A stretch of DNA of 42,574 bases from a virus (Duplodnaviria; Heunggongvirae; Uroviricota; Caudoviricetes): positions 1-42,574 of IMG/VR virus record IMGVR_UViG_2675903468_000002. The stretch is one strand, 5' to 3'. Both the position numbers and the translations under genes were made by a program. This document shows positions 2,606 to 34,933 of this stretch, piece after piece (position 1 is the first letter of the stretch; every line of letters starts with the position of its first letter). The notes below the pieces were generated by a model that saw only the letters and a program-made list of their open reading frames with translations, was not told the origin of the DNA and made no database searches.

Positions 2606-6007
<3,402 letters not shown>

Positions 6008-24951: not shown

Positions 24952-25377
24952 TCACAGGTACTGCTCCAGCGGCAACTGCAGCGCCTGCGCAATTTTCTTG
25001 AGCTGTGCTTCTTCATCCGGACCAATGCCATCCTGGTCTGCAATATCCAGACACAGGCACAGCACATCAACCGCTTCGGCGGTTCCTGCCACATCAGCCA
25101 GTTCTCGCAAAGCCTGAGCATTCGCACTACGAGGCGATGCTTCATAACGGGCGCGGATATTCGCGCTCATCTGGGCAATCTCACCGGAGAACGGCGCAAA
25201 GGCAGGAAGTGTTGCAATGGTTTTCTCCAGTACCGCAATTTCTTTCGCGTCACAGGTGTCGTCAGCGTATGCAATGGAATACGCGCCCCAGACGGTCGCC
25301 TCCACCGCGTCGCGGTTCTCCATTTTCTTCACTTCAGTAATAGCCTTACGGGTTTTCTTTTTGAAAATACCAAACAT
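24952..25377 (-). CDS. TerB-like (tellurite-resistance TerB fold) protein
   Basis: Start MFGIFKKKTRKAITEVKKMENRDAVEA; helical acidic protein resembling the TerB domain family, assigned from recalled sequence features only. Confidence 0.4.
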   Translation of the reverse strand: MFGIFKKKTRKAITEVKKMENRDAVEATVWGAYSIAYADDTCDAKEIAVLEKTIATLPAFAPFSGEIAQMSANIRARYEASPRSANAQALRELADVAGTAEAVDVLCLCLDIADQDGIGPDEEAQLKKIAQALQLPLEQYL

Positions 25378-25576
25378 CGTGACTTTTCCTTTTAGTGGGT
25401 GAGCCTCGCCCCGGGATGAGCAGCCCACAGAGAAAGTCACACTGACCATCCCGTAAGCTCCCCCCCCTGAAAGGCTCTGTGGTTTTTTGATGTGCGCCGG
25501 GCGTGGCGCAGATATGAAAAAGGCCACGCACGTGCGCAGCCTGATAATTTTCTGAATCAGCGGAGTGTCAGCTGGT

Positions 25577-26104
25577 TTACCCTTTCACTTCTGAAAGGGA
25601 TTTTTTGCCAAACGTCACTTCATTCATTGACATAAGTATGCTGTCTTTAATGTATTCGCACACTTCATTAATTTTTGCGTTGGTATCCACATGCGAAAAT
25701 GTCCTGGCCTGATAACCATCAACCGAAATCGTCATGTTGTCGCCATCAAGTAACAGAATACTCACTGTAATATTCACACTTACAGACTGGCGGGGATCAT
25801 CATCAACAACCGTATATAAATTAAAAGTAACCCCATCCTGAAAATCTACCTGCAAATCCTCCGGTTTCTCACAACAACTATCATGAGAAAGATAAACATA
25901 GGGATGGGAGTTACCGTCAATATCCAGCCATCGTGGTTTCGGCAATGCCAGTGAGTCTTCATAGGTCTTGACCAGCCTTTTTGCCATATCCCGCAGTCGC
26001 TGGATGTACTCCTGTCTGGCCTCCTGAATTTCAGCCTGCTTTTCCCGAATGTCTGCATATGTGATCACAGTCTCAATTCTCCTGTATACAGAAAAATAAA
26101 CCAT
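25577..26104 (-). CDS. Hypothetical protein (function unknown)
   Basis: ORF whose upstream part (26105-26200) contains a terminator, so start set at ATG 26104; alternative GTG at 26068 has an AGGAGA RBS. Confidence 0.5.
   Translation of the reverse strand: MVYFSVYRRIETVITYADIREKQAEIQEARQEYIQRLRDMAKRLVKTYEDSLALPKPRWLDIDGNSHPYVYLSHDSCCEKPEDLQVDFQDGVTFNLYTVVDDDPRQSVSVNITVSILLLDGDNMTISVDGYQARTFSHVDTNAKINEVCEYIKDSILMSMNEVTFGKKSLSEVKG
25579..25606 (+). terminator. Strong plus-strand intrinsic terminator overlapping the 3' end of a minus-strand gene
   Basis: CCCTTTCA-CTTC-TGAAAGGG followed by ATTTTTTG on plus strand; no U-tract in the minus orientation. Confidence 0.5.
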
Positions 26105-26163
26105 AATAATAGCCAACCGGGAAAAGATGAAAAATGCCATAACAGAACAGGCATTGCGCACGG

Positions 26164-26191
26164 ATAAAAAAATGCCCGTCATGAGACGGGC
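26164..26191 (-). terminator. Intrinsic terminator (minus strand)
   Basis: GCCCGTC-TCAT-GACGGGC followed by ATTTTTTTATCC on minus strand. Confidence 0.6.
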
Positions 26192-26748
26192 CCAAAGCAT
26201 TCATCGTATAAGAATTAGACAGCGTTTAATTGTATGGTTACTACCAGAATGATTCGTCAGCCTGCAACGTAATTCTGACGAATCACAGACCCCGAAACAG
26301 GCAGCGACTCATTCTGATAAAAACCATCCGATGATACACAACGTTAACAATGTAAAAAACAGCACCGAAACTGTAATCAGTCAGATATTACAGAATGAAG
26401 AACGACAAAGGCGCTTGCAAAACCTGTTCTCCGCGAAACTCGCCAGTGCTGAAACGATATGCCTCATTTGTTTACCAGTGCGGGTAGCAGAAATTACCCT
26501 CACACATAAAATGCTGACTTCCGGAATCACACTGCTGACCGGTTATTACTGAATCAACAAACTGATCACCAGGAAGTCAGCACTGACCTTTCCGGTGGTA
26601 TTAACACCCTGTGAACACAAAACGACCACCTTTAGGTCGTCACAAATACTAACAATGATTGTGTGGGCATCAAAAATATATTTGGTGTTCAGTTTTAAAT
26701 ATGTGTATACATCTGTATCAGAAATATACAACTTATATCATCACTGAA

Positions 26749-27795: not shown

Positions 27796-27945
27796 AGATC
27801 AATAAGCTCTTCTCTGATAGGCTCATACCGCTTTTGCGCAAAGCAGATGGGCCTGAGGTTTGCTTGTGATCCCAACGCATGAGCAGATGGCTGGCAGGTG
27901 CCGCTAACACCCACCAGCCGCCCATTACCACAAATTAAAAAGCCT

Positions 27946-28143
27946 TCACTGAGGAAGGCGTCTGTAACAACCGAACTGATAATCTGCCAGACCCGCCATA
28001 ACAAGCTGGGTCAGTATTAACTGGCAGCGTTCGCGTGAAAGGTAAGTATTCTGCGCAATTTCCCCGACGGTCGCCGGTTCGGTGACGCTTAATTCATTAA
28101 ACACCACTCTGGCGGTTTCGGTCATATCCTGCTGTTTTAGCAT
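27946..28143 (-). CDS. Small putative DNA-binding protein (winged-helix-like), function unknown
   Basis: Internal start MLKQQDMTETARVVFNELSVTEPATVGEIAQNTYLSRERCQLILTQLVMAGLADYQ; 150 bp upstream of the methyltransferase on the same strand. Confidence 0.35.
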   Translation of the reverse strand: MLKQQDMTETARVVFNELSVTEPATVGEIAQNTYLSRERCQLILTQLVMAGLADYQFGCYRRLPQ

Positions 28144-28650
28144 GTCTTTTTCCCTTTTCCGGTTAACGTGACATACCAATAACTCTTGTCGAAAAAGCCA
28201 GCAAGCTGAAAGACCGGTATTCGTAACCACCAGCACGTTTAACGTCCTGTGCCGTTTTTCGGGTACAAAAAACAGCCCGACGGCGGTTTTAAGGAAGGAG
28301 TCGAAGCAACCACTCTTAACATCATAATTGAATTTTTACGTACGTAAACCACAAATACGCCACTCAAATGTTAATGCTCTATAACAAAACCAAACATGCG
28401 AATAACACATATTACACCAAATACATCATTGTTATTTTTCAATGAAAAATGAGTAAATAATGTATTTCATTAATTAAATTCCGCATTACACAAAAATATC
28501 GACAAATTACACCAACGCGCATAAATGAGATCTTGATCATATTATCAATCACTAAATTAAACTTGCCTCTTGAAATAACCACATTGATTAGATGAATATT
28601 TATCGCGCAGTGACATCATTTTTTAAAATAGTTCAAAAAAAGGGTTCGTG

Positions 28651-29760
28651 ATGAAAAAATTAACGGTGGCAATTTCTGCTGTGGCTGCATCAGTATCAGT
28701 ACTGATGGCGATGTCTGCTCAGGCAGCAGAGATTTATAATAAAGACAGCAACAAGTTGGATCTGTACGGAAAAGTTAATGCTAAGCACTACTTCTCCTCT
28801 AACGATGCAAATGATGGCGACACAACTTATGCTCGTCTGGGTTTCAAAGGCGAAACTCAGATCAACGATCAACTGACTGGTTTCGGTCAGTGGGAATATG
28901 AATTCAAAGGAAACCGTACTGAAGAACAGGGAGCAGCCAAAGATAAAACCCGTCTTGCATTTGCAGGGCTTAAATTCGGTGACTACGGCTCCGTCGATTA
29001 CGGTCGTAACTACGGTGTAGCATACGATATCGGTGCATGGACTGACGTTCTGCCAGAATTCGGTGGAGATACTTGGACCCAAACAGATGTATTCATGACT
29101 GGTCGCACCACTGGTGTTGCAACTTATCGTAACAACGACTTCTTTGGTCTGGTTGATGGTCTGAATTTTGCTGCACAGTACCAGGGTAAGAATAATCATG
29201 ATCGTAGTAGCTTAGATAACTACACCAAAGGCAATGGCGATGGTTTTGGTTTCTCTGCGACCTATGAATACGAAGGTTTCGGCATTGGTGCAACGTATGC
29301 GAAATCTGATCGTACCGACACTCAAGTCAAATTGGGTAAACTTCTCCCAGGAGTATTTGCTTCCGGCGAAAATGCAGAAGTCTGGGCTGCAGGTCTGAAA
29401 TACGACGCAAACAACGTTTATCTGGCAACAACCTATTCAGAAACCCAGAATATGACTAAATTCGCAGATTACTTTGTGGCTAATAAAGCACAAAACTTCG
29501 AAGCTGTTGCACAATATCAGTTCGATTTCGGTCTGCGTCCGTCTGTTGCTTATCTGCAATCAAAAGGTAAAGATCTTGGCATTTTTGGTGACCAAGATTT
29601 AGTCAAATATGTTGATGTTGGCGCAACTTATTATTTCAACAAAAATATGTCTACATTCGTTGATTACAAAATCAACCTGCTTGACAAAAATGACTTTACT
29701 AAAGCTCTTGGTGTAAACACTGACGATATCGTTGCTGTAGGTATGGTATACCAGTTCTAA
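28651..29760 (+). CDS. nmpC: Outer membrane porin, NmpC/Lc/OmpC family (phage-encoded)
   Basis: [25 protein letters not shown] signal peptide then [24 protein letters not shown]...ending VGMVYQF; trimeric-porin hallmarks; closely matches recalled DLP12 NmpC; opposite strand to Q and lysis genes as in DLP12. Confidence 0.95.
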
Positions 29761-29777
29761 TCTGGTTAATAAAGGAT

Positions 29778-29829
29778 ATGCTGAGAAGGTTTTATCTTCT
29801 CAGCATATAAGTGGCTCCCTCAAGCCACT
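29778..29829 (+). terminator. Two hairpins immediately 3' of the porin gene
   Basis: 11-bp perfect stem ATGCTGAGAAG/CTTCTCAGCAT (29778-29806) and 7-bp stem AAGTGGC/GCCACTT; weak U-tracts. Confidence 0.4.
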
Positions 29830-29897
29830 TCTTTAAGAAGCATTAGAGCCCTGCTTCTTACTATCTAAACTTTCTGTTATATATTACCCTTTATCTT

Positions 29898-29926
29898 GGG
29901 GGTGTTTTTACGCCCCATTTTTTATT
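29898..29926 (+). terminator. Intrinsic terminator between porin and Q (plus-strand orientation)
   Basis: GGGGGTG-TTTTTA-CGCCCC followed by ATTTTTTATT. Confidence 0.55.
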
Positions 29927-29940
29927 AAAAAATAATCGTA

Positions 29941-30324
29941 TTAATTAAGCTTAGTAACATCAATATCCATCTCTAAGCAAATGTCTAATGCCATTAACAT
30001 ACCTTCGATTATTCCCTCTGCTTTCTGTAACCTTTTCCCGATATACCCATCAGAGCAATTATGCTTCCGCGCCAGCATCATAAACGTCATCCCACCAACA
30101 TAATAATCCACCAGCAAATCATGTAAGCCATTGTTGCTCTTTTTCAGACAGGCCATACATCCACAAATGATCATCGCGTCATCGTCACAGCATTGCGGAC
30201 GAGATCTTACTTTTGAAGGAATTAATCCCTTAAAACCGGCGGCAACGGACGACCAGGTCACATCTTCATGATTATTAGCCGCCCACGCTCCCCAACGCTC
30301 AAGAACCATCTGAATATCACGCAT
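29941..30324 (-). CDS. Q: Late-gene antiterminator Q (phage 82 / DLP12 QuuD type)
   Basis: 127 aa, [24 protein letters not shown]...[18 protein letters not shown]; matches recalled QuuD; located just upstream of the porin, as quuD-nmpC in DLP12. Confidence 0.85.
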
Positions 30325-30581
30325 CAGCGCAGTACCTCCTGCACCAGTTTTTCAAACTTTCCAACTTTGGTTTCCAGCTCTGCCACACAATCCACCAGCT
30401 CATCCACTGCTTTTTGTGCGCGGTGTTTCGCCTGCATCAGTTCCCTGAGCGCTGGCACCATATCCTTACGAATGGCATCTTTTGTTACGCCTGTCTTTTC
30501 CAGTTGTTCCGCCTGTCGTAACATTTCCTGTGCCTGTTTACGTAATTGTTCAGGCGTAAAAGTCATGGTCTGGTTGTTCAA
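30324..30581 (-). CDS. Small helical protein of unknown function
   Basis: 85 aa, charged coiled-coil-like sequence; start overlaps the DnaB stop. Confidence 0.5.
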
Positions 30582-34658: not shown

Positions 34659-34781
34659 GCTTTCCACGACCTTATTGGTGGTGAGACGTACAGGGGTGGA
34701 AATACCGGTCACCAAAGAACCCGGCCCAACCGAAGTTGGCCCTGCACGCCCCACCATAATTTGGGCGTAATGCTGCTCATG

Positions 34782-34808
34782 ACACAAAAAAACCGCAAGA
34801 GCGCGGTT
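34782..34808 (-). terminator. Intrinsic terminator downstream of the Lar-like gene
   Basis: Minus strand AACCGC-GCUCUU-GCGGUU followed by UUUUUUUGUG. Confidence 0.6.
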
Positions 34809-34933
34809 GTGCGCTTTGGTGAATTCCGGGTTTCCACGCCCGGCACCCGCTTTATAAGGTGCTGGAATAGTGTAACGTCCCGAAATTGCAGAATCAATAT
34901 GTTGGTTGCGGATCATTTTGTACCTACTCGCCG

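Follow-up and report, generated by a model that had tools for sequence, protein, structure and literature searches.

An Lc/NmpC-type porin gene with an ipeX-like 3' untranslated region between the Q gene and the predicted late promoter of a phiP27-like lambdoid prophage

The DNA analysed here, referred to as the window, is the complete 42,574-nt stretch of IMG/VR record IMGVR_UViG_2675903468_000002 (Caudoviricetes). The element carried in it is a phiP27-like lambdoid prophage of Escherichia coli, and between the gene of the antiterminator Q and the homologue of the late promoter pR' it contains a complete porin gene, placed on the strand opposite to the late genes and followed by a structured 3' untranslated region (UTR) that resembles the RNA ipeX. 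The cassette is quite probably a lysogenic-conversion element of the kind represented by lc of phage PA-2 and nmpC of the prophage DLP12, that is, a new copy of the known Lc/NmpC plus ipeX conversion cassette in a phiP27-like backbone. The features of the locus are as follows, with their basis in brackets.

28255-28320, minus strand: start of the late leader, with a conserved TAAGAGTGGTT box, then a hairpin (28290-28273) and a T-run (28272-28267)
28321-28348, minus strand: predicted late promoter pR', with -35 TTTACG (28348-28343), a 16-bp spacer and -10 TATGAT (28326-28321)
28327-28342, minus strand: the pR' spacer, containing the 8-bp palindrome ACGTACGT, a candidate Q-binding element (spacer comparison)
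28349-28650, no strand assigned: AT-rich divergent spacer, 302 bp, 29% GC, with pR' leading leftward and the porin gene rightward (composition)
28523-28544, plus strand: CRP-like 22-mer AAATGAGATCTTGATCATATTA (18/22 consensus matches by hand count)
28562-28650, plus strand: nearly invariant 89 bp, presumed promoter and 5' UTR (six relatives)
28570-28575, 28593-28598 and 28640-28644, plus strand: candidate -35 TTGAAA, weak -10 TGAATA and ribosome-binding site AAGGG (hexamers read by eye)
28651-29760, plus strand: porin coding sequence, 369 aa (list of open reading frames with translations, Pfam, relatives)
28651-28725, plus strand: predicted signal peptide of 25 residues, ending SAQA before mature AEIYNK
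29761-29925, plus strand: porin 3' UTR, ipeX-like RNA, 165 nt (folding, relatives)
29776-29808, 29809-29830 and 29834-29860, plus strand: UTR hairpins 1, 2 and 3 (folding)
29808-29776, minus strand: hairpin 1 read as a terminator-like hairpin with CCTTTATT, facing transcripts leaving Q (terminator scan)
29868-29890, plus strand: almost invariant unpaired stretch AACTTTCTGTTATATATTACCCT, 23 nt (relatives)
29899-29916, plus strand: intrinsic terminator, stem GGGGTGT-TTTT-ACGCCCC, then ATTTTTT with the T-run at 29918-29923 (terminator scan)
29941-30324, minus strand: gene of the antiterminator Q, 127 aa, PF06530 type (list of open reading frames, Pfam)

The porin reading frame ends at 29760 and could open at GTG 28648 or ATG 28651; the ATG is kept in six relatives, while the GTG is not. 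The Pfam family Porin_1 (PF00267) covers the whole protein (E=8e-152, profile positions 1-337 of 337), and the alignments to solved OmpC and OmpK36 chains run from end to end with E-values of about 1e-133 to 1e-137, residue 26 of the window protein being paired with residue 1 of the mature chains. The C-terminus is VYQF, with an aromatic last residue. The protein is 93% identical to Lc of phage PA-2 (684 bits), compared with 446 bits for the E. coli OmpC chains. On the basis of these comparisons it is assigned to the Lc/NmpC type within the general bacterial porin family PF00267 (OmpC/OmpF/PhoE), in agreement with the initial annotation, which had described a complete porin gene of this type with a signal peptide, on the other strand from the late operon. 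The window porin differs from Lc by two indels and about 25 substitutions. They are concentrated in loop regions, the clusters at residues 90-101, 182-193, 227-240, 270-274 and 311-312 corresponding to the indel-rich (loop) regions of OmpK36/Omp36 alignments.

Chromosomal porins such as OmpC, OmpK36, OmpD and PhoE belong to the same fold family, can be aligned with the window porin over the full length, and share its conserved N and C termini. Unlike them, the window gene is phage-borne, lies in an AT-rich context, and is followed by an ipeX-like UTR; chromosomal general porins are regulated by OmpR and small RNAs. The GC content of the porin coding sequence is 0.425, compared with 0.505 for the window. 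A reading frame of 167 aa runs antisense within the porin gene (28696-29199, minus strand), and frames of this kind are annotated as hypothetical proteins in some phage records (434B CPT_434B_68); most likely it is an artefact of the porin codon pattern.

Near-identical loci were found in E. coli strains EC11 (99.5%) and C5 (98.8%), to which RefSeq (PGAP) gives the gene name 'ompC: porin OmpC', and two IMG/VR contigs carry both a Q and a porin that are 100% identical to those of the window. The unit made up of Q and the porin gene (28559-30326) shows 83-87% identity to its counterparts in 434, PA-2, DLP12, mEp332, ev243 and many others. Exactly the same gene order and orientation are seen in the quuD-nmpC-ipeX-essD region of DLP12 in E. 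coli K-12 (Q, antisense porin gene with its UTR, pR', late genes; quuD on the plus strand and nmpC on the minus strand), so that the likeness to quuD-nmpC proposed earlier was confirmed. The differences are that the K-12 nmpC gene is split by IS5, while the window gene is intact, and that DLP12 is defective, while the late genes of the window are present as a complete set.

The record of PA-2 lc (GenBank J02580; Lc was formerly called 'protein 2') resembles the window in the protein, the signal peptide type and the orientation. As in the window, a pR'-like motif lies beyond the porin gene as seen from the Q end; of Q itself, the record takes in only about 35 nt at the 3' end. The two differ in what follows pR': S, R and Rz come at once in PA-2, while in the window a 65-aa reading frame, a DNA methylase gene and other cargo precede a holin/GH108 cassette. 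In the initial annotation the porin gene had been placed between Q and the lysis genes. It does adjoin Q, but it does not adjoin the lysis genes, from which it is separated by the 65-aa frame, the methylase gene, a gene of 207 aa and a TerB-like gene.

On the 5' side of the porin gene an AT-rich upstream region of about 400 bp had been claimed. The divergent spacer was found to measure 302 bp, and the left ~110 bp (28240-28348) are the late promoter and leader of the other strand. Part of the spacer (28356-28558) has no homology to DLP12 or PA-2, about 200 bp being unrelated to the PA-2 spacer. The 89-bp block directly before the ATG is more conserved across six relatives than the coding sequence, which is only 83-87% identical, and it therefore argues for constrained expression signals. 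The CRP-like 22-mer sits about where a CAP site is marked in the PA-2 GenBank record, ~110-130 bp before lc.

Several results weigh against expression of the cassette in the lysogen. No plus-strand promoter upstream of the porin gene scored 9 of 12 or better in the sigma-70 scan, and the CRP consensus 22-mer gave no match at <=3 mismatches, while its 16-mer core occurred at chance frequency (20 found, 21 expected); the CRP-like site is retained solely as a positional hint. The spacer, with 29% GC, is the type of DNA that H-NS silences. NmpC-type genes are said to be quiescent in some strains, and the title of one cited paper applies this term to the nmpC porin gene of E. coli B. One could therefore propose that the cassette, though intact, is not expressed in the lysogen or is expressed only under certain conditions, for example through the action of H-NS on the AT-rich spacer, so that neither the outer membrane nor superinfection would ordinarily be affected; the lack of homology between 28356-28558 and the PA-2/DLP12 spacer adds that regulation may differ from that of these relatives. 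We regard such silence as unlikely, though it deserves serious consideration, because the near-invariance of the 89 bp implies selection on expression signals, the reading frame is intact, the UTR structure has been kept by compensatory changes, and NmpC protein has been detected in proteomes of Shiga toxin-producing E. coli (PMC12136435).

The same evidence bears on the proposal of the initial annotation that the porin gene is an autonomously expressed moron. A moron in the sense of Juhala and Hendrix is an added gene that brings a promoter and a terminator with it, is missing from relatives at the same site and deviates in composition. The cassette ends in a terminator of its own, its 5' region is conserved and its base composition deviates, and at the same site phiP27, 933W and ev245 carry other cargo or none; the promoter is the weak part of the proposal, since no strong consensus sequence was found.

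A 183-nt segment containing the 3' UTR folds at -60.7 kcal/mol, with z = -7.5 relative to shuffled sequences. Two 3' hairpins had been noticed previously; we found three, and in addition the intrinsic terminator, which bears out the plus-strand terminator reported before Q. All four helices are kept in eight diverse relatives, 94% of cells being paired versus 44-51% when the partners are slid, and compensatory changes affect 7/39 pairs versus 3.1 +/- 1.2 in shuffles. The identity to the corresponding DLP12 and PA-2 sequences is 78-83% (about 81% for PA-2), and relative to PA-2 hairpin 1 has been rewritten by compensatory changes. A survey of IMG/VR yielded 120 contigs with this particular pR' motif, in 102 of which Q was found upstream; the UTR is present in 60/60 of the contigs that bear the porin gene.

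According to Castillo-Keller, Vuong and Misra (2006), ipeX reportedly lies between the nmpC stop codon and its terminator, and the PA-2 lc transcript is said to lower OmpC. In later publications, ipeX is described as arising from the promoter of the phage porin gene, within the porin mRNA, and as a repressor of ompC and ompF (PMC12197685; PMC5069750); it is assigned there to DLP12 with a length of 167 nt (PMC12197685; PMC5069750; PMC7177473). Judged by its position, make-up, homology and kept structure, the window UTR appears to be the counterpart of ipeX, and its hairpins are likely to be the means by which such prophages alter host porin expression. The analogy to PA-2 drawn in the initial annotation thus proved apt, as the ipeX 3' UTR, the mediator of host-porin down-regulation there, is conserved in the window.

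Some caution is imposed by the UTR itself. Hairpin 1 of the window is the most divergent of 31 UTR variants, and its activity could differ; an Rfam search with the UTR matched no family; the assignment draws on the homology to the DLP12 and PA-2 UTRs together with second-hand accounts; and the mechanism of ipeX is reportedly not one of simple complementarity (PMC12197685). A simpler explanation would be that the 3' hairpins are only a bidirectional terminator or insulator between convergent transcription units and have no role as a trans-acting RNA. In its favour, hairpin 1 scores as terminator-like on the minus strand and the GC hairpin does so on the plus strand, and hairpins in DNA are symmetric, so that compensatory changes alone show neither the selected strand nor a function. 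Nevertheless, one terminator would be enough for insulation, yet three extra hairpins and a 23-nt invariant stretch accompany it in all 60 porin loci. The homologous DLP12 and PA-2 UTRs are reported to repress OmpC and OmpF (PMC12197685; PMC5069750), and G-U pairs whose counterpart in the opposite strand would be an A-C mismatch are more frequent than the converse (11 cells versus 4 by hand count), which is weak evidence. A purely insulating role therefore seems improbable to us. The earlier description of the porin gene as insulated by terminators is correct in that terminators are present, but mere insulation does not describe hairpins that belong to a conserved regulatory 3' UTR.

A further question concerned the position of the late promoter. 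By sequence comparison, the site at 28348-28321 is a homologue of the Q-dependent pR' of the 933W/H-19B/DLP12 type, a sigma-70 promoter: the region 28355-28255 aligns with the annotated pR' of 933W and the start of its leader, including the TAAGAGTGGTT box and a hairpin followed by a T-run. The 17-mer motif TTTACGNNCGTAAAAAT occurs once in the window, versus 0.07 occurrences expected. In DLP12, 434, PA-2, ev243, 2G7b and Turner, too, the pR' module is found in the stretch that separates the start of the porin gene from the holin gene. In Shiga toxin (Stx) phages the pR' start has been mapped by differential RNA sequencing to 258 nt upstream of the 3' end of tR' (PMC7547250). In Sp5 of strain Sakai a start 7-8 nt past TATCAT of the homologous promoter would be exactly 258 nt from the T-run of tR', and by homology the late transcript of the window is predicted to start at ~28314 on the minus strand. 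The DLP12 lysis operon is reported to be controlled by Q from its own upstream region (PMC7918800).

The likeness to the Q-pR'-tR' region of 933W and other Stx phages, the source of the StxS RNA, comprises a Q of the same family (75% identity) and homologous -35, spacer, -10, initial transcribed sequence, and first hairpin with its T-run. The 933W Q is ~30 aa longer than the window Q and overlaps pR', with no cargo between them, and the 258-nt StxS leader with a strong tR' of the 933W type is not conserved in the window past the first ~90 nt. The promoter-proximal leader hairpin of the window is also degenerate, with -7.5 kcal/mol versus -11.6 to -15.2 in DLP12, 933W and phiP27 (compared at loci L004 ~6250, L006 ~4550 and L002 2983-3005), a point that weighs against the account proposed here. 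The whole late leader has no unusual structure (z = -0.24), and the next terminator-like site past the leader hairpin is at 27959-27942 on the minus strand. The leader hairpin (28255-28290, minus strand) is degenerate in EC11 too, and its T-run can instead pair with a downstream GAAAAAC.

Two other candidate signals were rejected. Features of the phage 82 pR' (an extended -10-like pause element and a GCC discriminator) were considered but dropped, since the window Q is of the PF06530 type, like those of DLP12 and 933W; the Q of phage 82 is, we assume, from a different protein family. A short match between the invariant UTR stretch, read on the minus strand as GTAATATATAACAG, and a 933W leader segment was judged to be due to chance.

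A rival reading, raised conditionally in the initial annotation, has the late promoter directly downstream of Q, as in lambda, so that the Q-modified polymerase would have to cross the whole porin gene in antisense. Such an arrangement has precedents, as pR' abuts or overlaps the 3' end of Q in lambda and 933W, and the intergenic region between Q and the porin gene is strongly structured on the minus strand as well and could pass for a leader with tR'. However, the promoter scan revealed no minus-strand promoter-like site in the interval between Q and the porin stop (29940-29761), the segment downstream of Q showed no meaningful homology to the 933W pR' region on alignment, and a complete homologue of pR' and leader is found at 28348-28255, beyond the porin gene. 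The same layout occurs in DLP12, 434, PA-2 and 60/102 surveyed contigs. A promoter next to Q is thus very improbable. With pR' beyond the porin gene, late RNA would start at ~28314 and head away from it, and therefore the problem of antisense late transcription does not arise. That the porin gene is a chromosomal ompC-like gene merely abutting the end of the prophage, as the RefSeq name 'porin OmpC' of the identical gene in EC11 and C5 might suggest, can be dismissed, since phage genes lie on both sides (Q, DnaB and DnaC-like genes; pR', methylase, holins, endolysin and terminase), the score to Lc is 684 bits versus 446 bits to E. coli OmpC, and the gene is also found in free phage genomes.

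The likely receptor of the phage was addressed through the last 250 residues of the tail-tip protein J (coding positions 2609-3358, minus strand). This segment shares 99.6% identity with its counterparts in Turner, PhiR30_1 and 2H10 and 99.2% with that of PhiR29_2, several of these phages carrying the porin gene. Its identity to many long-tailed Stx phages is about 90%, phi330 being one of them with 89.8%. Phage phi330 cannot plate on a delta-ompC host, and complementation rescues plating (PMC12502783). By this similarity, the window phage probably adsorbs to OmpC. An association between porin carriage and the type of J was not established, only 5 of ~30 porin phages being among the closest J matches.

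PA-2 lysogens reportedly make Lc, lose OmpC and become resistant to PA-2, which is said to adsorb to OmpC; the classical explanation is that the phage removes its own receptor and supplies a substitute porin. The organisation of the window would be compatible with the same strategy. The cassette appears to form one plus-strand unit, made up of a conserved promoter and 5' UTR, an intact porin gene, a 165-nt structured 3' UTR and an intrinsic terminator. Situated between Q and pR' (28348-28321, minus strand), it would run towards the early operon, whose last gene is Q, and diverge from the late one. The porin mRNA would provide the lysogen with a replacement pore, while its ipeX-like tail may lower OmpC and OmpF post-transcriptionally. 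If the tail tip is of the OmpC-using type, loss of OmpC would strip the lysogen of the phage's own receptor, resulting in superinfection exclusion, with porin function kept.

After induction, the Q-modified RNA polymerase would start at ~28314 and leave the porin gene behind, so that late transcripts and the porin gene would not collide. The hairpins clustered between the stop codons of the porin gene and Q would end the porin RNA and would probably also stop unmodified read-through from Q. One point tells against a complete absence of conflict: processively antiterminated early transcripts could still cross the porin gene in antisense after induction. What the sequence shows is the gene anatomy, the homologies, the location of pR' and the conserved RNA structure. 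We are most confident of the anatomy and of where pR' lies, and less so of expression, ipeX activity, OmpC as the receptor and exclusion. A site between Q and its promoter would explain how a strongly expressed antisense gene can fit into the late regulatory region without transcriptional conflict.

Comparison with other phages suggested that the site itself may be of wider interest. Among the 102 contigs with both Q and this pR' motif, the interval between them holds an antisense porin gene in 60, is empty in 24 and carries other cargo in 18, which makes the porin plus ipeX cassette its commonest occupant. The distance from the Q end to the -35 hexamer is 1.53-1.66 kb in the porin contigs (2.85 kb in one). 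The other cargo includes an Rce1/CPBP-like membrane protease and ORF6N-domain proteins; at the IMG/VR loci L018, L033, L064, L068 and L129 the occupants observed were the Rce1/CPBP-like protease, ORF6N and DnaD_N-like proteins, and a small secreted protein.

No cargo separates Q from pR' in 933W, where the two overlap, while phiP27 has a T5orf172/MUG113 nuclease gene there (locus L006 3250-4479). In ev245 and IdasGreatGrand the interval holds an antisense Blc lipocalin gene and a 2-thiouracil-desulfurase-like (DUF1722) gene (loci L013 3535-5211 and L014 3534-5210), and the pR'-like site follows ~1.9 kb after Q. These two phages also have a strong terminator, GCCAGCCTCCCCAAAGGCTGG with a T-run of 7-8, directly after Q and in the Q direction (L013 3370-3530), which resembles the tR' hairpin of 933W; parts of the leader and the terminator may have been rearranged about the inserted genes.

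Homology between phiP27 (an Stx2e phage, NC_003356) and the window is interrupted by the same interval. The two are 92% identical over 33000-30274, which includes the replication genes, 90.6% over 28337-26767, from the pR' -10 through the 65-aa frame and the methylase gene, and 84% over the holins. The homology ends at about codon 17 of Q (30274) and restarts within the pR' spacer (28337). The differences comprise Q, which is 48% identical, another spacer palindrome, the nuclease gene, which lies in the sense orientation in the Q-pR' interval, and the transfer RNA genes and stx2e elsewhere. By comparison, the window Q is 87% identical to the Q of DLP12/434-type phages.

The spacer palindrome varies with the Q allele, being ACGTACGT in the window (28327-28342, minus strand), ACGATCGT in 933W (L002 2929-2944) and GGAATTCC in phiP27 (L006 ~4495-4512). 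This would fit what a candidate Q-binding element should show, although a comparison of so few alleles is inconclusive. One could hypothesise that in phages with a PF06530-type Q the interval between Q and pR' is a general cargo pocket, across which Q and its promoter element stay linked over up to ~3 kb and are exchanged together; we consider the chances of this rule to be about even. DNA in the interval would lie outside the late operon and, if antisense, also outside the early one, which would permit expression in the lysogen without disturbing the lytic programme. The rule was not found stated in the literature examined and is, for DLP12, implicit in the published work on the promoter of the lysis operon. 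The only mildly new point here is that the interval may serve generally as a cargo pocket, across which Q and its promoter element are inherited together, and it marks the interval as a place to seek other conversion genes.

The findings matter mainly for annotation. The gene that RefSeq calls 'ompC' would be a prophage conversion gene of the Lc/NmpC type with an ipeX-like tail, and automated phage maps would put pR' beside Q, while the late promoter predicted here is 1.6 kb away from it. If the cassette is active, the lysogen would have an altered set of porins, with a bearing on its susceptibility to OmpC-dependent phages and colicins and on antibiotic permeability.

On the minus strand, replication genes and an 85-aa reading frame precede Q, and further to the left, beyond pR', lie the 65-aa frame, the DNA methylase gene, two holin genes, a GH108 endolysin gene and the terminase. 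Two features follow the late leader and are context rather than part of the cassette:

28143-27946, minus strand: 65-aa reading frame, the gene nearest to pR' on the late side; its weak TrmB-type match falls below the Pfam cut-off
27959-27942, minus strand: terminator-like hairpin followed by TTTTTAATTT, after the 65-aa frame (terminator scan)

The conserved 65-aa frame (region 27942-28143) is annotated in phiP27 as a TrmB family regulator. Should read-through occur at the proximal leader terminator, the protein could be produced constitutively from pR' in lysogens.

A second cargo slot was noticed at 24952-26200 (minus strand), where the 207-aa reading frame without a Pfam match is found together with the TerB-like gene and a DUF3927 gene, as annotated in EC11; its counterpart in phiP27, between the methylase and the holins (locus L006 6142-7721), contains the transfer RNA genes and stx2e. 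In the early region, beside ash/Rha-type genes, two Rfam families scored above their gathering thresholds, namely C4 antisense RNA (34674-34761, minus strand, 83.6 bits) and the Hfq-binding RNA isrK (34786-34862, minus strand, 67 bits). This region resembles an antirepressor-control module of the P1/P7 kind inside a lambdoid prophage.

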